Assembly: GCA_964534165.1 (NCBI GenBank)
Contig: CAZHOU010000001.1
Coordinates: forward strand, 1 to 31,795
Direction: 5' to 3'
Source of the DNA: an uncultured Zetaproteobacteria bacterium
GTDB taxonomy: Bacteria; Pseudomonadota; Zetaproteobacteria; Mariprofundales; Mariprofundaceae
Length of the DNA: 31,795 nucleotides
The stretch's first letter is position 1. The number at the start of each line of letters is the position of its first letter. The translations under genes were made by a program, and so were the position numbers. Of this stretch, positions 6,722 through 25,325 are shown one piece after another. Below the pieces are notes generated by a model. The model had not been told where the DNA came from. It worked only from the letters and a program-made list of their open reading frames with translations, and did no database searches.

Positions 6722-7010
6722 CGCAGGCTATCCAAAAGAAAAGGCCTTCATTCCCCCTGCCTTTTCTTTGCGCAAACCAGCGACCCTGGCCCGGATTTTT
6801 CATGGGAACGCGCCTGCCTGCCGCGACTCCGGCGCAGGCATGGATGGACGGCGCAGGCAAGAAAGGGGCTGCGAAATGCAAGGGGTCACGATGCAAAAGC
6901 ACATCGGTTTCGACGCAACCCCTTCATGCTTTTCGATCGTTCAAATCCCGGCGCGTGATCATCATGAAAGATCCGGGCTGGTGATGAAGGGCATGGTGAA
7001 ATCATCATGA
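6714..7010 (+). other. Possible 98-aa ORF filling the cusB-cusA gap (unverified)
   Basis: ATG overlaps the cusB stop and TGA overlaps the cusA ATG (ATGA); no recognisable family. Confidence 0.25.
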
Positions 7011-10000
7011 TCGGGCGCATCATCGAATTGTCGCTGGCCAACCGCTTCCTGGTCTTCATGGCCACGGCACTCCTGATCGCTGCCGGCGCACTGGCCATCA
7101 AGAAGATGCCGCTCGATGCCATTCCCGATCTCTCCGACGTGCAGGTGATCGTATTCACCGAGTTCCCGGGGCAGGCGCCGCAGGTGGTCGAGGACCAGGT
7201 CACCTATCCGCTGACGACGGCCATGCTGGCCGTGCCGCATGCCAAGGTCGTACGCGGCTATTCCTTTTTCGGCTTTTCGTTCGTGTACATCATCTTCGAG
7301 GACGGCACCGACATGTACTGGGCCCGGAGCCGGGTTCTGGAATACCTGAATTACGCCGCCAAGTTCCTCCCGGCCGGCGTCACCCCGACGCTGGGGCCGG
7401 ACGCCACCGGCGTCGGCTGGGTGTACGAATACGCACTCGTGGACCGTTCCGGAAAACACGACCTGTCGGAACTCCGCTCCATCCAGGACTGGTATCTCCG
7501 GTACGCGTTGCAGACCGTTCCCGGGGTTTCGGAGGTCGCCTCGGTCGGCGGTTATGTCAAGCAGTACCAGGTGGAGGTGGATCCGAACAAGCTGGCCTTC
7601 TATAAGATTCCGCTCTCCAAGGTCAAACGCGCCATCCAGCGAAGCAACAACGATGTCGGGGGCCGCCTGATCGAGATGGCCGAATCCGAATTCATGGTCC
7701 GGGCGCTCGGCTACATCAAGTCCCTCGACGACATCCGCAACATTCCCATTGGTGTCGACAAACAGGGTACACCCATCTACGTGCGCGATGTCGCGGATGT
7801 GCACCTCGGGCCCGAACTGCGCCGGGGCCTTGCGGAGTTGAACGGCGAGGGGGAAGTGGCCGGCGGGGTCATCGTCATGCGCTATCGCGAAAATGCGCTC
7901 GAGGTCATCAAGCGCGTGAAGGCGAAGCTGGAGGAATTGAAGGCCGGCTTGCCCGACGGCGTCGAGATCGTTCCCACCTACGACCGCAGCAGCCTGAGCC
8001 TGCGCGCCGTCGAAAACCTCAAGGACAAGCTGCTGGAGGAGTTCATCGTCATCTCTCTCGTCTGCGTGCTGTGTCTGCTGCATGCCAGGAGCGCCTTGGT
8101 CGCCGTGCTGACCCTGCCGCTGGGTGTGCTCGTGGCCTTTATCCTCATGCAATGGCAGGGGCTTGCGGCCAACATCATGAGCCTGGGCGGCATCGCCATC
8201 ACGCTTGGCGCCATGGTGGATGGGGCCATTGTGTTGATCGAAAATGCCCACAAGCATCTCGAGCGGGCGCTGGTCAAAAAACAGAACGTCATTGCGAGCA
8301 GTTCGGAGCAATCTTCGGAGGCCGAGGTTGCCACCGGGGCCCCGCCTTCTCGCCATGACGCGGATGTCACCCTCACCACCAAGGAGCGCTGGAAGGCCGT
8401 GAGCACGGCCGCCAAGGAGGTCGGCCCGGCGCTGTTCTTCTCGCTCGTCATCATCACCATCTCCTACACCGCGGTGTTCACCCTGGAAGCACAGGAGGGA
8501 CGGCTGTTCAAGCCGCTGGCCTTCACCGCCACCTACGCCATGCTCGGTGTCGCCCTGCTGGCAGTGACGCTGACGCCGGTGTTGATGGGTTATTTCATCC
8601 GTGGCCTCATCCTGCCGGAGAAGAAAAACCCGGTGAATCGCGGGCTCATCGCTGTGCACCGGCCGCTTTTGAACCTCACGCTCAAGGGCAAATGGATCTC
8701 GCTTCTCTTGGCGCTGGTGCTCCTCTCAAGCGCCGCCTGGCCACTTTCCAAACTGGGGAGCGAATTCATGCCGCCGCTGGACGAGGGGGACATCCTCTAC
8801 ATGCCCACCACCTTTCCCGGCGTCTCGATCACCAAGGCCAAGGAAATGCTGCAACAGACGGACAAGATCCTGAAAACCTTTCCGGAGGTGAAGACCGTGT
8901 TCGGCAAGGTCGGTCGCGCCGAGACCTCCACCGACCCGGCCCCGCTGTCGATGATGGAGACCATCATCCAGCTCAAGCCCCGCTCCGAGTGGCCGCATCC
9001 GGAGATGAGCACACGCGCGCTGATGCGCAAGATGGACAAGGCCATTCATTTTCCAGGACTGGCCAATGCCTGGACCTATCCGATCAAGACCCGCAACGAC
9101 ATGCTCTCCACCGGCATCAAGACGCCCATCGGCGTGAAGATCTCCGGTCCCGACCTTTCCACCCTGCAGCGCCTGACGGAAAAGATCGAGGATGTGCTGA
9201 AGGGCCTTCCGGAAACCCTGTCCGCGTTCGGTGATCGTGCCGTCGGCGGCCATTACGTGGACTTCCGCATCAAGCGCAAGGAGGCGGCCCGGTACGGCCT
9301 GACCGTTGGGGACGTCGAGGACGTGATCCAATCAGCCATCGGCGGCATGAACATCACGCAGACGGTGGAAGGACTGGAACGCTACCCGGTCAACCTGCGC
9401 TACCCGCGGGCCTACCGGGATGACATTGAGGTCTTGAAGCGGGTGTTGATCCCGACTCCCACCGGCGCCCAGATCCCGCTGGTGCAGGTGGCGGACATTC
9501 GCCTTGTCGGCGGCCCGCCGTCCATCAAGAGCGAGGCGGCCCGTCCCAATGCCTGGATCTACGTCGACCTCAAAACCTCGGATATCGGCGGCTATGTGGC
9601 CAAGGCCAAACAAGCCATCGCCGCACATGTCAAGCTTCCGCCCGGCTACGCCATTGGCTGGTCCGGCCAGTTAGAGTACATGCAGAGAGCGGCGGCCCGG
9701 CTTCGAATCGTCATCCCGCTGACGTTGGTGGCCATCTTCCTGCTGCTCTACTTCAATTTCCGCAATCTGACGGAGCCGCTCGTGGTCATGCTCGCCGTCC
9801 CCTTTGGGCTGATCGGAGGATTCTGGCTCGTCTGGTGGCTGGGTTTCAATCTCAGCGTCGCTGTCGGTGTCGGCTTCATCGCCCTGGCCGGTGTGGCAGT
9901 GGAAATCGGAGTTCTGGTGCTCACATTCATCGACCAGGAGGTGGCTGAGTTCCGGAAGGACAGGCAGGGAGGTGGGCTGACCGCGGTGGAGATCATGGAA

Positions 10001-18526: not shown

Positions 18527-19981
18527 GTGCGTGCGCCGCTTGCATGGAAGATCGGCTGCTGGCTCGGCGTAGTGTTCGCACTGGTCGTCTATGTCGGCTG
18601 GCACATGGTGATGGATTTCAATGCTCTTCACCGCGAGGCGCGATTCATCGAAACCGTCAATCATGAAAGCCATTACCTGCATGAGCTGGAGATGGCGCTT
18701 GTCCATACCATCGCTCCGGTGAGATCGTATCTGATCAGTGGCGACTGGCGCCTGCCGGACGCGTTCGCAAGGAAAAGCGCCCACATGCGCCATTTGCTGC
18801 ACGCCTCCGTCTCCGGCCGTGTACGTGATCTCCATCTCGAACGTTCCCTGGCAGAAATCACCGTCCGGGCCAAGCATATCTTCTCGTTGCCGTTTCCCGT
18901 CGGCAACCTGGAGGGCCCGATTCTCATGCGCGAGATCGACGATATCGTCAACCACGTATCGCAGCGACTGTCGGCAAGGCACGACGAGCTGCACCAGGGA
19001 GTGGTAATGTCGATGCGCAAGGTTGGTGTCATGCGCAAGGACATGCGGACGGACTTCCAGCTTTCCATCCTTCTTCTTTTCTTCATTCTGACCGGCATGA
19101 CCATGTGGCTCTACATGCACATGGTCCGCCCGCTCGTGCACCTGCAACGTGAGCTGAAAAAAGTGGGTCGGGGAGAATTCGACATCCATTGCCCCAGACT
19201 GCCGATGGATGAACTGGGAGAACTGGCACAGGCCTGCAATTTGATGGGTGAAGCGCTGCAGACACGGGAGGCCATGTTGAACCATGCACGCAACATGGCC
19301 GCCCATCACGAGAAAATGCGGGCACTGGGACTGATGGCCGCCGGCATCGCCCATGAAGTGGGGAACCCGCTGTCGGCCACTTCGGTTTCCCTCGAAACCG
19401 CCTTGCGCGGCCTGGAGCGGAAGAATTACGAAAAATGCAGAGAGGGGGTGTTGACGGCCCTGGAGGAATTGAAACGTATGGAGAGCATCATCCGCAACAT
19501 CCTCGATTACGGCGCCGTCAACAATGAAACCTCCTTGACCCGCATTGATGCCGTACCGGTGGCTCGGAGCGCCTTCTCCCTGGCGCGCATGTCACCGCAA
19601 CGACGGCAAGTGGATCTCAAATTTGAAATCGAATCCTCAAGCCTGTTCGCCCGTGGCAATGCCTCCATCCTGCGACAGGTCCTGGTCAATCTTCTCCTCA
19701 ACGCCATGGATGCCTGCAGCGAAGAAGGATGCGTCTCGCTCAAGGCCACGCGTCTGGACGGCGGTATCGCTCTGGATGTTTCCGACAACGGCCCCGGTGT
19801 ACCGGAACATATGCGGGAGGAAATTTTCACACCGTTGTTCACCACCAAATGCAGCGGTTCCGGTTCAGGGGTCGGCCTGGCCATCAGCCGCGAGCTGATG
19901 CAACGTATGCACGGAAAACTTGAACTCGTGCACAGCGACGGCCGCGGCAGCCGATTCCGTGCCTGGCTGCCTGCGGGATAA
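18527..19981 (+). CDS. Sensor histidine kinase (2 TM, periplasmic sensor, HAMP, HisKA, HATPase)
   Basis: H-box AHEVGNPL, N-box LLLNAMDA, DNGPGV, FTPLFTTK, GSGVGL; HAMP DELGELA. Confidence 0.92.
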   Translation: MRAPLAWKIGCWLGVVFALVVYVGWHMVMDFNALHREARFIETVNHESHYLHELEMALVHTIAPVRSYLISGDWRLPDAFARKSAHMRHLLHASVSGRVRDLHLERSLAEITVRAKHIFSLPFPVGNLEGPILMREIDDIVNHVSQRLSARHDELHQGVVMSMRKVGVMRKDMRTDFQLSILLLFFILTGMTMWLYMHMVRPLVHLQRELKKVGRGEFDIHCPRLPMDELGELAQACNLMGEALQTREAMLNHARNMAAHHEKMRALGLMAAGIAHEVGNPLSATSVSLETALRGLERKNYEKCREGVLTALEELKRMESIIRNILDYGAVNNETSLTRIDAVPVARSAFSLARMSPQRRQVDLKFEIESSSLFARGNASILRQVLVNLLLNAMDACSEEGCVSLKATRLDGGIALDVSDNGPGVPEHMREEIFTPLFTTKCSGSGSGVGLAISRELMQRMHGKLELVHSDGRGSRFRAWLPAG

Positions 19982-19992
19982 AGGCGGATCGC

Positions 19993-21300
19993 ATGCGTAT
20001 ACTGATCGTCGAAGACGAACGACATATCCGACAAGGCGTCATGAACGTACTCAACGAGGAAGGTTTCGATACCCTGGAAGCCGGCAACCTGCGGAAAGCG
20101 CTCGACATCCTTCGGGCGGGGGATGTGGACGCGATCCTGAGCGATATAAGGCTCCCTGACGGCGACGGTTTCGATCTTTTGCATGCCCTGAAGGCCAGGA
20201 ACGATCCCGTTCCATGCATTCTGATGACCGCCTTCGGCAATCGGGATATCGCCAACCAGGCCCTGAAGGAAGGCGCCTACGACTATATTTCGAAGCCCAT
20301 TCGCTTCGATGAATTGCTGGCGCGGCTGTTTTGCTTGCAAGAAAGGATCGAGCTGGAAAGGCGGCTGCAAAGCATGGCCGCCGCCCTCAAGGATGAAGGC
20401 AAACTCGCTTCGATGGGGAATTCCGCAGCCATGCGACAGGTTCGTTTCCTGGCCGAAAAGGCCGCGGCGGCCCGCTCGCCGGTGCTCATCCGTGGAGAAA
20501 GGGGAGTGGGCAAGCGAAGACTGGCTCACCTGATCCACATGACGAGCGAACGGGCGGCCGAACCGTTTGTGCAGTTGAGCTGCGCCTCCATTCCGGAGGA
20601 ATTGATGGAGCGGGAGCTGTTCGGCTATCGCCGCGGCGCCTTTCCGGGCGCGGACCGCGGATACGAGGGTATCTTGTCCAAGGCCGGGCGCGGCACATTG
20701 TTCTTGGATGAGGTCAGCGAGCTTCCGCGCATCATCCAGGCGGCGTTGTTGCGCGTACTGGACGACGGCTGCTTCCAGCCCTTGGGGGAGACCCGCAGGC
20801 AACCCTTTCAGGCCCGCATTATCACCGCCACCGACAAGGATCTGAGAAACGAGACCCTGCATGGGCGCTTTCGTGAGGACCTGTTTTTCTGCCTCGATGT
20901 GCTGCATATCGATATCCCGCCTCTGCGGGAGCGCCGGGAGGACATCGTGCCGCTGGCGGTGTCTATCCTGGAAAAGCTGGCCGCGGACCGGTCGATCCGG
21001 ATTGCACCCCTGGACGCCCGCCAATGCCTGTGGCTCAAATCGCAGGAATGGCCCGGCAATGTGCGGGAGTTGAGAAACACCCTGGAACGAGCATTGCTCC
21101 TGGCCCGGGACGGCAGGCTGGATCTGCCGCCTCGGAGAATGGTCGAAGGAAGAACGGGAGCGACACTCGCCGAGGCCACGGCGAATTTTGAGCGCAGCCT
21201 GATTCTGCAAACGATCGAGGCCTGCGACGGTGACAAGGAGGAGGCCAGCCGTCGTCTGGGTATCGGCTTGTCCACCCTGTATCGCAAATTGGGAACCTGA
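19993..21300 (+). CDS. NtrC-family response regulator (REC-AAA+-Fis HTH) with degenerate sigma-54 interaction motifs
   Basis: REC with VED, SDIRLPD, SKP; Walker A GERGVGK, GAFPGA, Walker B FLDEV, WPGNVREL; HTH LGIGLSTLYRKL. Confidence 0.9.
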   Translation: MRILIVEDERHIRQGVMNVLNEEGFDTLEAGNLRKALDILRAGDVDAILSDIRLPDGDGFDLLHALKARNDPVPCILMTAFGNRDIANQALKEGAYDYISKPIRFDELLARLFCLQERIELERRLQSMAAALKDEGKLASMGNSAAMRQVRFLAEKAAAARSPVLIRGERGVGKRRLAHLIHMTSERAAEPFVQLSCASIPEELMERELFGYRRGAFPGADRGYEGILSKAGRGTLFLDEVSELPRIIQAALLRVLDDGCFQPLGETRRQPFQARIITATDKDLRNETLHGRFREDLFFCLDVLHIDIPPLRERREDIVPLAVSILEKLAADRSIRIAPLDARQCLWLKSQEWPGNVRELRNTLERALLLARDGRLDLPPRRMVEGRTGATLAEATANFERSLILQTIEACDGDKEEASRRLGIGLSTLYRKLGT

Positions 21301-21349
21301 ATCCCATAATCGGGATTCCCGACCCCGGTATATTTCCCAAATATGGGAA
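21301..21349. promoter_or_regulatory. Tandem palindromic operator-like sites upstream of cyc2
   Basis: ATCCC-N6-GGGAT (21301-21316) and perfect TTCCCA-N4-TGGGAA (21334-21349), starts 33 bp apart. Confidence 0.55.
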
Positions 21350-21390
21350 TAAAGGCCCTTGCACACAAAATCCTTGGAAATCCATCCATC

Positions 21391-21419
21391 TTGTATCTAC
21401 TTGATTAGATTATCATATT
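21391..21419 (+). promoter_or_regulatory. Candidate sigma-70 promoter for cyc2
   Basis: TTGTAT-N17-CATATT, 4/6 match at each hexamer, in an AT-rich patch. Confidence 0.3.
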
Positions 21420-21518
21420 CCACATGTTCACCCACACCGCGGGTGACTGTTGCATATTGCTACATGCCTCGCCATCGACGTTGATCACCCGTCGCTGCGG
21501 CTTCATCGTTTCTTCCAT

Positions 21519-21636
21519 TCTTCCCGGGAGAGGAGGCTTTCCTGCCCGTCTTTCGCCTCGGTCGCGGAAGGAAGCGGGCAGGTCGAAGGAGAGCATCGCT
21601 TGAAAGCGGGAAGACCCATCAAGGCTCCACGGAGCC
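21519..21636 (+). ncRNA. Candidate structured 5' leader of cyc2 (unassigned)
   Basis: Helices 21519-21525/21608-21614, 21541-21556/21564-21582, 21597-21600/21605-21608 and 21623-21627/21632-21636, found by eye. Confidence 0.35.
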
Positions 21637-21665
21637 GAATCAAGAACCTTGGAGGTTAAACACTC

Positions 21666-22940
21666 ATGAGAAAAATTCTGCTTACAACCGCAGCCCTGGC
21701 GCTGGTCCTGGTTTCCGGCGTTGCGCTGTCGCCCAACAAGGCTGAGGCTTTTCCGGCCTTCGCACGCCAGACCGGGGCCGCCTGCCTGAGCTGCCACTTC
21801 CAGACCTTCCCGGCGCTGACCGCCTTCGGACGCGCCTTCATGATGGGCTCGTTCACCGATGTCGGCGATCAGGCCTTGGTCGAGGACGACAACCTCTCCA
21901 TCCCGTCCGTGCTCAACGCCTCGTTCGAGGTGCGTGCCAACGCCACCCATACCAGCAGCTCCGGCGCCGCACCGTCGGATACCACATATTCCATTCCCGC
22001 CGACGAGACACGTTTGTTCGTGGCCGGACGCATCGGAGCGCATACCGGTGCCGTGATCGTGTTCACGGGCGGCAGTGATGCCATGAACATGAAACCAACC
22101 CCCGTCTGGATGCTCTTGAATTCCTGGGATGTGGGCGGCTTCAAACTCGGCCTCGGTGCCCACAAGAGTCCCTGGGGCGGCTCCAACGTGATGGAGGTGT
22201 CGAACGTCTTCGGTCACCGCGGCGACAAACTCGGCGGCCAAGACATCTCCGCCATCTCCAACTCCGGCTTCACCAAGATGACCACCGGTATCGGTACTTG
22301 GGTCGGCAACGATCTCGGCTACCTTCAGTTCTCACTCGTGGCCCCTGCCAACAAGACCCTGGGTGGAACGAACATCGGCCTGAATTTCGGCAAGCTGGTG
22401 CGTGGCGTGGCGACGCTTGATATCGGCGGCTGGGATACCCTGGTCGGCTTCGGCATCGTCACCGGCACCGCCGGCAAGAACAACGCCGGTGCCAGCGGTT
22501 CCACCGGAGCCCGGGTGCCGATGAAGCTGCAATTCGTGGATGCCCAGATGCAGGGCGAGGTCGGCGACATGAGTGTCGGCGTCTACGGCGACTACGCTCA
22601 TGCCAAGGGCAGGACTTCCGCGGCCGGTACGGCCAACTTCTACGGTTCCAATCTCGGAACAAACACCAACGGCAGCAAATTCGACGCCTTCTCGATCCGC
22701 GCCGAAATCGAGCCGATCAACCGCTTCCTGTTCGGTGTCGGCTACGGCTATCAGAAGTTCACGCAACTGGGTAAGAACGATATCACCCAGAAGACCGTGC
22801 ATCTTGCCGCCACCTACAAGGTGTACCAGAACTTCGACATCAACGTGCGCTTCGACAACGAGAAGCTCAGTGACGGGGTAACGCCGAGCAATTCCGTGAC
22901 GACTCGCACGACCGTCTTTGAGGTCGACGCTCTGATGTAA
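21666..22940 (+). CDS. cyc2: Cyc2 outer-membrane cytochrome c-porin fusion (putative Fe(II) oxidase)
   Basis: Signal peptide ending KAEA, then FPAFARQTGAACLSCHFQTFPALTAFGRAF (Cyc2 signature with a single CxxCH), followed by an amphipathic beta-strand region; GGAGG SD at 21651. Confidence 0.9.
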   Translation: MRKILLTTAALALVLVSGVALSPNKAEAFPAFARQTGAACLSCHFQTFPALTAFGRAFMMGSFTDVGDQALVEDDNLSIPSVLNASFEVRANATHTSSSGAAPSDTTYSIPADETRLFVAGRIGAHTGAVIVFTGGSDAMNMKPTPVWMLLNSWDVGGFKLGLGAHKSPWGGSNVMEVSNVFGHRGDKLGGQDISAISNSGFTKMTTGIGTWVGNDLGYLQFSLVAPANKTLGGTNIGLNFGKLVRGVATLDIGGWDTLVGFGIVTGTAGKNNAGASGSTGARVPMKLQFVDAQMQGEVGDMSVGVYGDYAHAKGRTSAAGTANFYGSNLGTNTNGSKFDAFSIRAEIEPINRFLFGVGYGYQKFTQLGKNDITQKTVHLAATYKVYQNFDINVRFDNEKLSDGVTPSNSVTTRTTVFEVDALM

Positions 22941-22951
22941 GGATTGGTTAT

Positions 22952-23006
22952 CCTCCGAGTGGGGAGCGGCAAATCCGCTCCCCACCATGGAGGTCCGATT
23001 TTTTTT
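22952..23006 (+). terminator. Intrinsic terminator of cyc2
   Basis: GTGGGGAGCGG-CAAAT-CCGCTCCCCAC perfect 11-bp stem (22959-22985), extended by CCTCC/GGAGG, then T8 at 22999-23006. Confidence 0.85.
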
Positions 23007-23017
23007 GAAATTATATT

Positions 23018-23036
23018 GATAATGATTCTTGTTATT
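23018..23036. promoter_or_regulatory. Fur box
   Basis: GATAATGATTCTTGTTATT matches GATAATGATAATCATTATC at 14/19, first 9 positions exact; an overlapping weaker copy lies on the other strand; AT-rich context just upstream of the next SD. Confidence 0.72.
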
Positions 23037-23061
23037 ATTCTCATAAAGGAGCTGTTTTTCC

Positions 23062-23907
23062 ATGTTGAACAATCATTCACCCATGAAAACCTTCCTGTCT
23101 CTGGGAATCGCCATCCTCCTTCCCGTCACGGCCTACGCAGCCAACGGTGCCAATTTCGTTCTCTACAACCATCACATGGCCGAAGTGGGCGAAAAAGAGC
23201 TGATGCTGATGAACGATATCGGCCAATTGCCGGATGGAACCCGATACACAGCCCAGATGCTCGAATTCGAACTGGGGATCACGGCGCAATGGACCACGGA
23301 GTTCATGATCGAGGGACAGAACACCTCCGGCCAGGGCGGCTACAACTTCACCGGTTTCCGCTGGGAGAACCGCTATCGCGTTTTCGATCGCGAGGTGACT
23401 TTAAACCCGGTTCTGTATCTCGAATACGAAGACCTGAGTTCGGACACCTTGTACCTGATGGAGGTGAGCGGACGCGAAGACGCAACCAGAAGGGTCAAAT
23501 CGAGGCCACGGGAGCGGGTCCTGGAGACGAGACTGATCCTGTCCCAGAACGTGGGCAAGCGACTCAACATCGCCGCCAACTGGCTGAATGAGAGCGATCT
23601 TGATACCGGCGTCACCGCCTTCGGCTACGCAGTCGGCATCAACTTCAGGCTCGACACTCCGGTTCTCCTTCCGGGTAGGGAGGATGAAGACGGGGATGCA
23701 GGCGTCGTGCTCGGACTCGAACTCTTCGGCGGCGCGGGTGACGCAGACAAGGGTCCGACCCTGGACGGGGCCGTCACCCAGCACTACCTGGCGCCGAACC
23801 TGCTGTTGCAGGGACGACATGGCTGGAAACTGAAATTCGGCGGCGCCATCGGGCTGACCAATGTCAGCCAGGACCTCTTCCGCATGGCCGTGGCCTACGA
23901 GTTCTGA
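23062..23907 (+). CDS. Putative outer-membrane beta-barrel protein (DUF6662-like)
   Basis: Signal peptide (AYA|A), alternating beta-strand pattern, NPVLYLEYED, C-terminal YEF (BamA-type terminal Phe). Start 23062 or 23083; family name tentative. Confidence 0.72.
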   Translation: MLNNHSPMKTFLSLGIAILLPVTAYAANGANFVLYNHHMAEVGEKELMLMNDIGQLPDGTRYTAQMLEFELGITAQWTTEFMIEGQNTSGQGGYNFTGFRWENRYRVFDREVTLNPVLYLEYEDLSSDTLYLMEVSGREDATRRVKSRPRERVLETRLILSQNVGKRLNIAANWLNESDLDTGVTAFGYAVGINFRLDTPVLLPGREDEDGDAGVVLGLELFGGAGDADKGPTLDGAVTQHYLAPNLLLQGRHGWKLKFGGAIGLTNVSQDLFRMAVAYEF

Positions 23908-23920
23908 GCCGGCATGCACG

Positions 23921-23974
23921 GGCCTGAACCGCGCCCGCTTGGCGGTTCGGGCCGTTTGCGTCTATGATTTTTTT
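23921..23974 (+). terminator. Probable terminator hairpin
   Basis: 12-bp stem 23921-23932/23942-23953 (one G-U); the T7 run at 23968-23974 is somewhat distant. Confidence 0.45.
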
Positions 23975-24047
23975 ATGCATCCGGACCAGGGAGATGCAAA
24001 CGCGCCTTCTCGAAGCGGAACCAGTGTCACAAAAAACCGGGGGAATC

Positions 24048-25325
24048 ATGAACCAACTCCAACAGAGCACCCGAACACAAGGGCTTGACACGCATCCGGG
24101 CCTGGAGGACACGGCCGCAATCCTGCGTGAACTGCTCGCCGGCTACTGCGGCCCGGTGGCGGTGGAGCTGTGGAACGGAGAGACGGTAATCGGAGATGAG
24201 CCATCTTCCTGCCGCATCGTCTTTCACCGGCCGGAACCGCTGCGTGATCTGATCCTGCACCGGGATCTTCTGCGTCTGGCCGAGGCGTACCTGAGGGAGG
24301 AAGTCGATGTCGAAGGGGACATCGAAGCCGTCTTCGACCTCGCCGATTTCATCCAGACACTGTCTCCACCGTGGCCCAAGCGCTTCCATCTGCTGCGCCA
24401 TGCCCTGCGCCTGCAGGCCGGAATCCATCCCCTCCCCGCACTTGGACTGCTGCGAACGCAGAGACGCAACACCAAGGCCAGCATCGCCTACCACTACGAC
24501 GTCTCCAACGATTTCTACCGCCTGTGGCTGGATCCACAGATGGTGTATTCCTGCGCCTATTTCAAGGATGGGGGCCAGAGCCTCGCCGCGGCACAATGCG
24601 ACAAGCTGGACCGCATCTGCCGCAAACTGTGCCTGGCCCCGGATCAAACCCTGCTCGATATCGGCTGCGGCTGGGGCGCCCTCGTTTGCTGGGCCGCCCG
24701 GAACTACGGTGTGCGTGCCACAGGCATCACCCTGAGCGCCGAGCAGCACACCCTCGCATCCGAGCGCATTGAGCGGGAGGGTCTAAAGGACAGGGTTCGC
24801 GTCGAATTGCGCGATTACCGGGATCTGGCGGAGGAGGAACGCTTCGATCGCATCGTCAGCGTCGGCATGTTCGAACACATCGGCGTCAGAAATTTTCCGC
24901 TCTATTTCGGCAAGATACGGCGCTTGCTCAAACCGGGCGGCCTGTTTCTGAACCACGGCATCACAAACGACACCGGTTGGCGCGACACGCCCCTGACACG
25001 TTTCATCAACCGCTATGTATTCCCGGATGGAGAGCTGGCCCGCATCAGCCATGTCATCACGGCCATGGAGGACACTGGTTTTGAAATCATAGACGTCGAA
25101 GGCATGCGCCGCCACTACGCCCTCACCCTGCGCCGCTGGGTGGAGGCTCTCAGGCGCCAGAAGACGCGGGCTGTCGAGATCGCCGGCGAACGCATCTATC
25201 GCATCTGGCAGCTGTACATGGCCGGCAGCGCCCATTATTTCGATGAGGGCAGCCTCGGCGTCTACCAGGTCCTGGCCGGCTGTGCCCGCAATCCCCTGGC
25301 CACGCCGCTGCGGCGAAAGCTGTAG
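24048..25325 (+). CDS. cfa: Cyclopropane-fatty-acyl-phospholipid synthase family SAM methyltransferase
   Basis: HYDVSNDFY, MVYSCAYF, LDIGCGWG, VSVGMFEHIG, FINRYVFPDG, RIWQLYMAGSA. Start at ATG 24048. Confidence 0.88.
   Translation: MNQLQQSTRTQGLDTHPGLEDTAAILRELLAGYCGPVAVELWNGETVIGDEPSSCRIVFHRPEPLRDLILHRDLLRLAEAYLREEVDVEGDIEAVFDLADFIQTLSPPWPKRFHLLRHALRLQAGIHPLPALGLLRTQRRNTKASIAYHYDVSNDFYRLWLDPQMVYSCAYFKDGGQSLAAAQCDKLDRICRKLCLAPDQTLLDIGCGWGALVCWAARNYGVRATGITLSAEQHTLASERIEREGLKDRVRVELRDYRDLAEEERFDRIVSVGMFEHIGVRNFPLYFGKIRRLLKPGGLFLNHGITNDTGWRDTPLTRFINRYVFPDGELARISHVITAMEDTGFEIIDVEGMRRHYALTLRRWVEALRRQKTRAVEIAGERIYRIWQLYMAGSAHYFDEGSLGVYQVLAGCARNPLATPLRRKL

Follow-up and report, generated by a model that had tools for sequence, protein, structure and literature searches.

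A stand-alone Fur-boxed predicted outer-membrane barrel beside cyc2 in an uncultured zetaproteobacterium, a candidate TonB-independent metal channel related to FTR1-fused barrels

Introduction

In textbook models, ferrous iron is assumed to cross the outer membrane of Gram-negative bacteria by general porins, and TonB-dependent receptors are the sole recognized dedicated iron gates of this membrane. Here we analyze a small gene in the genome of an uncultured member of the Mariprofundaceae (Zetaproteobacteria), encoded on 31,795 nucleotides (nt) of DNA (assembly GCA_964534165.1, contig CAZHOU010000001.1, positions 1 to 31,795), a stretch that is referred to as the window at its full length. The gene follows a cyc2-like gene (cyc2 in the following), is preceded by a Fur-box-like array, and encodes a predicted 12-stranded outer-membrane barrel of 281 amino acids (aa), called the target below. 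On balance, this protein is probably a channel that works without TonB, is induced by iron starvation, and conducts Fe(II) or a different transition-metal cation.

A described pathway with the logic of this proposal is the FtrABCD system for Fe(II) uptake in Brucella, Bordetella, and Burkholderia (PMC11966278), which is Fur-regulated and Fe(II)-specific and combines an FTR1-type permease with a periplasmic one-electron oxidant. As described, FtrABCD comprises four components, none of which resides in the outer membrane, and FtrB requires Cu2+ for the oxidation of Fe2+ (PMC11966278). Compared with FtrABCD the target would represent the missing outer-membrane step; homologs of FtrA, FtrB, and FtrD are absent from the window. 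Porins with a proposed role in Fe(II) entry are known from Geobacter and Desulfuromonas, where they are encoded by Fur-regulated psp (PF07396-like) genes and by an OprB-like gene located beside feoAB (Rodionov et al., 2004, PMC545781). As in the window, these porin genes are preceded by Fur boxes and their products are predicted to admit ferrous iron, a function that is likewise a prediction. They belong, however, to the phosphate-selective porin O/P-like and OprB families, and the target matches neither of these in Pfam. Cyc2 itself is also an outer-membrane barrel tied to Fe(II), but it is a fused cytochrome-porin of 424 aa, whereas the target is shorter, has 12 strands, and possesses its own Fur-boxed predicted promoter. 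Furthermore, the target contains no cysteine in its 281 residues and therefore no CXXCH heme-binding site, which sets it apart from the Cyc2 proteins.

Results and Discussion

A Fur-boxed gene downstream of cyc2

The target gene sits between cyc2 and cfa and, judging from its flanking DNA, appears to form a transcription unit of its own under the control of Fur. The locus contains the following elements:

18527 to 21300, plus strand: gene pair encoding a histidine kinase and an NtrC-type response regulator (HK-RR), assigned by Pfam and synteny
21666 to 22940, plus strand: cyc2-like gene for a fused cytochrome-porin with a CLSCH heme motif in the open reading frame (ORF); a separate upstream transcription unit
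22939 to 23003, plus strand: compound GC-rich hairpin leading into a U-run, the likely intrinsic terminator of cyc2, which would insulate the barrel gene
23012 to 23042, plus strand: Fur-box array with 15/19 matches at 23018-23036 and overlapping sites, shifted by 6 nt, at 23012 (14/19) and 23024 (13/19)
23030 to 23038, plus strand: candidate extended -10 element TGtTATTAT within the Fur box, read from the sequence as part of a putative promoter
23047 to 23052, plus strand: Shine-Dalgarno sequence AAGGAG, 9 nt before the ATG at 23062
23062 to 23907, plus strand: gene of the 281-aa, 12-stranded outer-membrane barrel, recognized by its ORF, predicted fold, and conserved residues
23921 to 23953, plus strand: possible terminator formed by a 12-bp GC stem past the stop codon, with GUUUG and, further on, a U-run behind it

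The hairpin behind cyc2 had been described in the original prediction, which was made from the sequence alone, as a strong insulating terminator. RNA folding agrees with this view, as the structure reaches -38.7 kcal/mol (z -5.74) before it runs into the U-run and was not matched in stability by any of 200 shuffled sequences (0/200). A simple rule-based scan for terminators and promoters detected neither the hairpin nor the promoter; the terminator escaped the scan because its stem is compound and the rules are strict. The stem downstream of the barrel gene (-35.5 kcal/mol, z -2.1) is weaker evidence than the upstream hairpin, and with one such structure on either side the gene looks monocistronic. 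Cotranscription of the barrel gene with cyc2 was considered and rejected because of the intervening hairpin, the reversed gene order in a second genome (G081, see below), and the separate element found upstream of each gene. RNA families were not detected by an Rfam search of positions 21200-24200.

The spacer between the end of cyc2 and the barrel ORF comprises 121 nt and is AT-rich downstream of the hairpin, where the local GC content dips to 0.48. Within it, bases 23018-23036 read GATAATGATTCTTGTTATT and agree with the E. coli Fur consensus GATAATGATAATCATTATC in 14/19 positions, which is the score originally predicted for this site, and in 15/19 with the reverse complement of the consensus. 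Candidate Fur-site letters of the barrel promoter include GATAATGAT, and the overlapping sites at 23012 and 23024 form the hexamer-array signature of Fur sites. Shuffling the complete 121-nt spacer produced at least 15/19 matches with a probability of 0.0005, and for its AT-rich 58 nt alone this probability was 0.001. Across the 1.74-Mb assembly only five 19-mers, falling into three loci, attained 15/19 or more, and 0, 0, 4, 0, and 0 such 19-mers occurred in Markov-simulated genomes. The two loci besides the window are C81:1324-1348 (16/19), directly upstream of fur and then FTR1, and C229:892-916 (17/19), which precedes a gene for a 261-aa signal-peptide protein that is a paralogous barrel. 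Thus, the three best Fur-like sites of this genome mark fur-FTR1 and two barrel genes. An exact search for the Fur consensus with up to three mismatches had returned no match, because the site in the window carries four to five mismatches. Fur itself is encoded on contig C81 (PF01475, 121 bits), where it is preceded by its own 16/19 box, and a second paralog is located on contig C18.

The box is also conserved in other genomes. When the 250 nt before 78 family genes were scanned, with 661 other genes of the same loci as controls, boxes of at least 14/19 were found for 11/78 family genes and 3/661 controls (Fisher p = 2.6e-9, a value inflated by kinship). Every ortholog with 59-67% identity to the target (in L005, L006, L007, L008, L009, L010, and L014) has a 15-17/19 box 57-104 nt before its start, so that the site is kept in all close orthologs, which span the Nitrospirota, Deltaproteobacteria, Thermodesulfobacteriota, and Zetaproteobacteria. 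In four loci from outside the Zetaproteobacteria (L006, L007, L009, and L010) the box is placed between a predicted -35 element (TTGACA, TTGAAA, or TTGATA) and TATAAT, which, as far as these motifs identify the promoters, is the classical layout for promoter occlusion. The barrel gene thereby shows the features expected of a Fur regulon member, namely a box beyond chance expectation that is conserved at predicted promoters in a genome that encodes Fur, and binding of Fur to this site is predicted. Since the box overlaps the putative promoter, holo-Fur should keep the barrel gene repressed in iron-replete cells, and this repression should be lifted once the cells are starved of iron.

Predicted fold and lumen of the barrel

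The reading of the ORF as a signal-peptide protein ending in YEF with an N-terminal NHHM proved correct. The protein starts with a signal peptide (residues 1-26, cleavage motif AYA/A), contains the conserved N-terminal segment NGANFVLYNHH with YNHHM at residues 35-39 (motif NGANFVLYNHHM), and terminates in AYEF. An AlphaFold2 model built from a 45-sequence alignment has 12 strands, with a mean predicted local distance difference test score (pLDDT) of 89.9 and a predicted template modeling score (pTM) of 0.82; residues 27-44 are modeled confidently but adopt a non-regular conformation. According to Foldseek and VIA-align, the closest solved folds are 12-stranded outer-membrane barrels, given here with Z score, root-mean-square deviation (rmsd), and number of aligned residues:

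FapF (5O65): Z 21.5, rmsd 2.4 A, 212 residues
KdgM (4FQE/4PR7): Z 19.5, rmsd 1.8 A, 170 residues
COG4313 channel Pput2725 (4RL8): Z 19.3, rmsd 2.7 A, 209 residues
NanC (2WJQ): Z 18.4, rmsd 2.6 A, 187 residues

Autotransporter beta-domains follow with Z 16-18. Structure prediction hence bears out the barrel fold that had been proposed from the sequence, and the signal peptide, the 12 modeled strands, and the C-terminal aromatic beta-signal jointly characterize the target as a predicted 12-stranded outer-membrane barrel. The four listed proteins share fold and size with the target (Z 18-21.5, rmsd 1.8-2.7 A over 170-212 residues), but sequence identity is only 9-14% and the target has no match to their families at the level of hidden Markov models (HMMs). 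Their substrates (amyloid subunits, oligogalacturonate, sialic acid, and hydrophobic compounds) are not metals. In FapF and the COG4313 channel, an N-terminal region inside the barrel aligns with the N-terminal segment of the target. As these alignments start at model residues 22-32, the conserved segment probably resides in the lumen of the modeled target as well. Identity as a TonB-dependent receptor was ruled out, as Pfam found no PF07715 plug in the target, which comprises 281 aa and 12 strands rather than 22; lacking both the plug domain and a 22-stranded barrel, the target is TonB-independent by architecture.

Lumen orientation and plug position were deduced from strand alternation and fold alignments. 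The strands carry invariant charged residues (E68, E70, E80, E84, R100, E102, R104, R106, E121, E123, E155, R157, E177, E220, and R274) that alternate along the chain and therefore lie on one face. Y35, H37, Y119, Y189, H241, and Y242 are conserved too. Four methionines (M48, M50, M66, and M82, plus M133) are located on the charged face and are 80-100% conserved in the two clades nearest to the target. Other residues take their place in the acidobacterial clade, and the clades that keep M48, M50, M66, and M82 are those with a Fur box, FTR1, or FeoB. In the model, the conserved face with its charged residues and methionines would point into the lumen. Provided that both termini face the periplasm, the connection between strands beta8 and beta9 is expected to form a turn on that side as well. 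This connection is acidic in the target (EDEDGD) and His-rich in many relatives, and it holds a heavy-metal-binding domain (HMBD) in Armatimonadota.

Fusions of a homologous barrel with FTR1 permeases

The family HMM was searched in 133 genomes of the class and recovered full-length orthologs in three of them, the genome studied here (G000), G081, and G103. In 23 further genomes it matched the N-terminal half of a barrel (E 1e-11 to 1e-15) located in an ORF of about 513 aa. This ORF consists of an FTR1 permease (REVLE), an internal signal-peptide-like helix ending in AQA/KK, and a domain of about 240 aa that ends in GYEF. One example is given below:

L088, 1117 to 2658, minus strand: FTR1::barrel fusion, also present in 22 other zetaproteobacterial genomes (L089-L104)

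AlphaFold2 models the fusion as seven transmembrane helices, a low-confidence signal-like helix, and a 12-stranded barrel with pLDDT 83-91, and the FTR1::barrel polypeptide is probably processed into two proteins, one of the inner and one of the outer membrane. The fusions are preceded by a small gene for a secreted cupredoxin-like protein and by tandem 16-18/19 Fur boxes. The fusion layout occurs in at least 236 protein clusters, which are annotated just as 'FTR1 family protein' or 'high-affinity iron transporter'. When the target family was aligned to the fusion barrel domain by hhalign, 217 columns spanning residues 28-281 of the target matched with a probability of 99.7% (E 2.6e-26), which indicates that the target is homologous to the barrel of the FTR1::barrel fusions over the whole barrel. 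The original prediction had placed the family near FTR1-type permeases. This link proved real, since FTR1 is adjacent to or near the barrel gene in L009, L012, and L023 and hundreds of proteins unite FTR1 with the homologous barrel in one chain.

Target and FTR1-fused barrel have in common the 12 strands, the upstream Fur boxes, a core composed of E102, E121, E123, E155, E220, and H241, and a C-terminus of the GYEF type. They differ in sequence, with an identity of about 23-28%, and the target branch additionally has the N-terminal motif GNGANFVLYNHH, a long beta5-beta6 loop, a variable beta8-beta9 turn that is acidic or His-rich, and the methionine ladder. The target is furthermore a stand-alone protein encoded beside cyc2; searches did not find longer, fused forms of the target itself, including fusions to FTR1, which is weak evidence. 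In the window the target is neither fused to nor in an operon with FTR1 and a cupredoxin, and FTR1 is found on contig C81. Owing to this lack of a fusion or operon context and to its own motifs, the target was filed as belonging to a sister clade of the FTR1-associated barrel rather than as a member of it. The 261-aa protein on contig C229, in contrast, is 49% identical to the fusion barrel domain and thus a true member of the FTR1-associated branch. As both genes are Fur-boxed, the genome has two Fur-boxed paralogous barrels, one a stand-alone Ftr-type barrel and the other the divergent target. What is usually an FTR1::barrel fusion is split in this genome over C229 (L003:892-1678, barrel) and C81 (L004:35-1348, fur-FTR1). 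Another fusion with a periplasmic oxidant is represented by the cluster P0300 (295 aa), which joins a cupredoxin domain (PF13473) to an Ftr-type barrel.

Family affiliation and distribution

Neither Pfam nor NCBIfam gave a hit above noise for the target; an NCBIfam match to undecaprenyl-diphosphate synthase (E 0.013) was dismissed as chance. Membership in COG4313/Phenol_MetA_deg (PF13557) was not found either, since the target has no match at E <= 0.1 and only 3/45 relatives match weakly (best 1e-4). In addition to these three PF13557 matches, Pfam searches with the 45 relatives gave weak clan-level matches to OMP_b-brl (9) and DUF5777 (4), and identified a true insertion of HMBD (PF19335) in four. 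The ESM Atlas returned 'hypothetical' clusters and, at rank 25, one PF13557 cluster, and a distant clan-level relation to PF13557 is possible. HMBD is inserted at the beta8-beta9 turn in P0094, P0095, P0098, and P0112 (Armatimonadota) and in L028 and L030, and a His-rich insert at the same turn is common among other relatives.

A word-indexed search yielded 425 relatives and an exhaustive search 308 representatives at 50% identity. All relatives named in their sources are 'hypothetical', except one HMBD-bearing relative that is named for this domain. The barrel family is encoded in at least 591 species genomes, and the best 80 of these are all metagenome-assembled genomes; among these 80 are Nitrospirota, Thermodesulfobacteriota, 'Deltaproteobacteria', Zetaproteobacteria, Acidobacteriota, Omnitrophota, Armatimonadota, Planctomycetota, Chlamydiota, and Alphaproteobacteria. 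Literature searches on the barrel family, on FTR1-barrel fusions, and on iron uptake in Zetaproteobacteria found no description of this family or of the fusions; the one precedent retrieved concerns Fur-regulated porins of other families (Rodionov et al., 2004, PMC545781). What the present analysis adds as new is the stand-alone sister clade with its predicted methionine lining, along with the connection of this clade to the HK-RR-cyc2 module.

The HK-RR-cyc2 module in Zetaproteobacteria

Orthologs of the kinase of the adjacent HK-RR pair are present in 54/133 genomes. The barrel occurs in three genomes and in each of them is located within a few kb of an HK-RR pair, and in two of these three carriers it adjoins cyc2. 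The order in the window is HK-RR-cyc2, hairpin, Fur box, and barrel, while in G081 the HK-RR genes are followed by a Fur box (17/19), the barrel, a AATATGGGAAT motif, and a cyc2-like gene. In G103 the barrel gene and an HMA-HK-RR operon are oriented divergently. The AATATGGGAAT motif upstream of the cyc2-like gene in G081 is also found upstream of cyc2 in the window, so that cyc2 and the barrel gene keep separate control elements whatever their order. As for control over the barrel gene by the response regulator, the sole hint comes from G081, in the form of a loose CCAAATATTTTTGG. In the same genome (L105, G081:C4), the minus strand downstream of the cyc2-like gene encodes a His-rich membrane protein (HHEQLH, 7271-8005) and a small secreted protein (6804-7289).

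A genome of the same genus (G016, 99% complete; L107 = G016:C13) has HK-RR-cyc2 at 72-74% DNA identity to the window but no barrel gene. DNA homology between G016 and the window ends at position 22984, inside the cyc2 hairpin, beyond which G016 has OmpA-like and glycogen genes instead of barrel-cfa-ppsA. The barrel gene is thus best described as an accessory gene that recurs at the HK-RR-cyc2 module.

Gene neighborhoods in other phyla

Neighboring genes were surveyed by greedy ORF calls on the loci of relatives, all-against-all clustering, and Pfam searches with representatives. A Fur-family gene is found at position -1 or -2 in 11/72 loci (Nitrospirota, Chlamydiota, and Acidobacteriota). Models of ferric-uptake Fur, and not of Zur, are the best match for the encoded proteins, though with scores below the curated cut-offs. 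FeoB together with a DtxR-FeoA regulator is encoded just upstream of the barrel in L025 and L029. In all, fur, FTR1, and feoB recur beside or near the barrel gene (11, 3, and 2 loci). TonB-receptor-like genes occur in about six loci. In L025 (2680-7635), FMN_bind and ApbE genes flank the barrel in addition to FeoB and the DtxR-FeoA regulator; FMN_bind and ApbE are also assigned in L032 (10318-12217) by clustering with the L025 genes (clusters 51 and 52), no Pfam check having been made. In Acidobacteriota (L037-L084, e.g., L037:8001-9229) a monoheme cytochrome c of about 135 aa is encoded 15-90 nt past the barrel, often together with a divergent Fur-family gene. These acidobacterial loci are without a classical Fur box and have another, GCAACTGAGTTGC-like palindrome upstream.

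Proposed function and alternative explanations

If the target is the metal channel that we consider somewhat probable, holo-Fur would occlude the barrel promoter in iron-sufficient cells. Under iron starvation, the protein would be made, exported, and inserted into the outer membrane by the beta-barrel assembly machinery (BAM), with its N-terminal YNHH segment lying within the lumen or against it. Invariant Glu, Arg, Tyr, and His residues would line this lumen, joined in the target clade by the methionine ladder; Fe(II) or a similar soft transition-metal cation could pass through it into the periplasm, where the Fur-controlled FTR1 permease of this genome might take over the iron. A combination of methionine and carboxylates would select Fe(II) or Mn(II) against Mg and Ca ions despite their abundance, as in NRAMP transporters. 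Fold, Fur box and its conservation, homology to the FTR1-fused barrels, and gene neighborhoods are results of the analysis, whereas Fur binding, the outer-membrane location, which residues face the lumen, a plug formed by the N-terminus, and the transported ion are inferred. The original prediction had postulated a TonB-independent outer-membrane channel for iron or another metal next to the iron oxidase, probably with regulation opposite to that of the latter. The barrel without a TonB plug, the Fur box, and the link to FTR1 speak in favor of this proposal, and as regards the substrate copper is still a rival.

Several observations weigh against this function. At 15/19, the Fur box in the window falls short of its counterparts in the orthologs, and a clear -35 element is absent in the window. 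FTR1, the sole iron permease found in the genome, is encoded on another contig than the barrel, and a search of this 90%-complete assembly did not reveal a convincing FtrB-like cupredoxin or FeoB. A lumen plugged by the N-terminus might conduct no ions. The neighbor counts were drawn from related genomes and crude ORF calls. Finally, the Met/His chemistry, the HMBD and His-rich inserts in relatives, the CusF neighbor, and the location next to copper-export genes in Zetaproteobacteria would also suit Cu(I).

Among the alternatives, the barrel could be, rather than mainly a diffusion channel, an outer-membrane partner for docking or hand-over that brings a periplasmic redox protein (a cupredoxin, a small cytochrome c, or Cyc2) to this membrane, where Fe(II) would then be oxidized or Fe(III) reduced; we regard this as unlikely. 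Consistent with such a role, the acidobacterial monoheme cytochrome c gene lies directly 3' of the barrel gene (position +1) in 17-19 loci, a cupredoxin gene precedes the FTR1::barrel fusions, P0300 unites PF13473 with a barrel, and cyc2 is the neighbor in 2/3 zetaproteobacterial carriers. The window, however, is without a gene for a small periplasmic partner, and the target gene appears monocistronic between its two hairpins; moreover, docking would be compatible with a function as channel.

Quite unlikely, in our view, is a channel for the entry of copper, as Cu(I) or Cu(II), that is induced by iron starvation and supplies the cupredoxin- or multicopper-type oxidants of FTR1-type uptake or the products of nearby copper genes. 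The target clade has kept H37/H38 as well as the methionine ladder (M48, M50, M66, M82, and M133), and relatives have His-rich or HMBD inserts at beta8-beta9. CusF adjoins the barrel in L016, and in the zetaproteobacterial loci L008 and L106 the barrel is accompanied by putative copper-export genes, an HMA-domain gene and a P-type-ATPase-like ORF, both read from motifs with no Pfam check. The Cu2+ requirement of FtrB (PMC11966278) also fits this explanation. The regulators adjacent to the family are, however, Fur and DtxR and not CueR, CusRS, or CsoR, the links to FTR1 and FeoB fall precisely on the methionine-bearing clade, and a precedent for Fur-controlled copper import was not found in the literature. 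In NRAMP a single methionine selects for Fe2+/Mn2+, and methionine is therefore not diagnostic of copper.

Two further explanations have very little to commend them. An ordinary structural protein or general porin behind an AT-rich spacer (GC 0.48) that is merely Fur-box-like would agree with the score of just 14-15/19 in the window, but is highly improbable given that such a score is rare (0.0005-0.001) even after accounting for local composition, that the boxes are conserved and stronger in orthologs from other phyla, and that fur, FTR1, and feoB are recurring neighbors. Equally remote is an export channel of the FapF or autotransporter kind, or an efflux outlet through which metal or a small secreted iron-binding molecule leaves the cell: among solved structures the FapF secretion channel comes nearest, with its plug aligned to the N-terminal segment of the target, and resistance-nodulation-division (RND) and membrane fusion protein (MFP) genes occur within a few genes in about six loci, but Fap genes, a passenger domain, or a conserved efflux partner are lacking, the RND genes are neither immediate nor consistent neighbors, and the similarity to 12-stranded folds is generic, with KdgM, NanC, and COG4313 scoring nearly alike.

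Implications for iron acquisition

If the target indeed is a metal channel, a widespread unnamed family would supply the missing outer-membrane step of Fe(II) uptake. More tentatively, and with considerable doubt, the two types of barrel may form a Fur-controlled superfamily of small outer-membrane gates for Fe(II) in Gram-negative bacteria, composed of an FTR1::barrel polyprotein branch and a stand-alone Met/His branch. In iron-oxidizing Zetaproteobacteria the latter might have been recruited to HK-RR-cyc2 and could separate nutrient Fe(II) from respired Fe(II) or feed a metal signal to the His/Met-rich sensor kinase. The target is small, cysteine-free, and apparently monocistronic, which makes the family easily testable. 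In an iron oxidizer, a channel of this type, encoded side by side with cyc2 and yet under separate control, would bear on how nutritional iron uptake is kept apart from respiratory iron oxidation.

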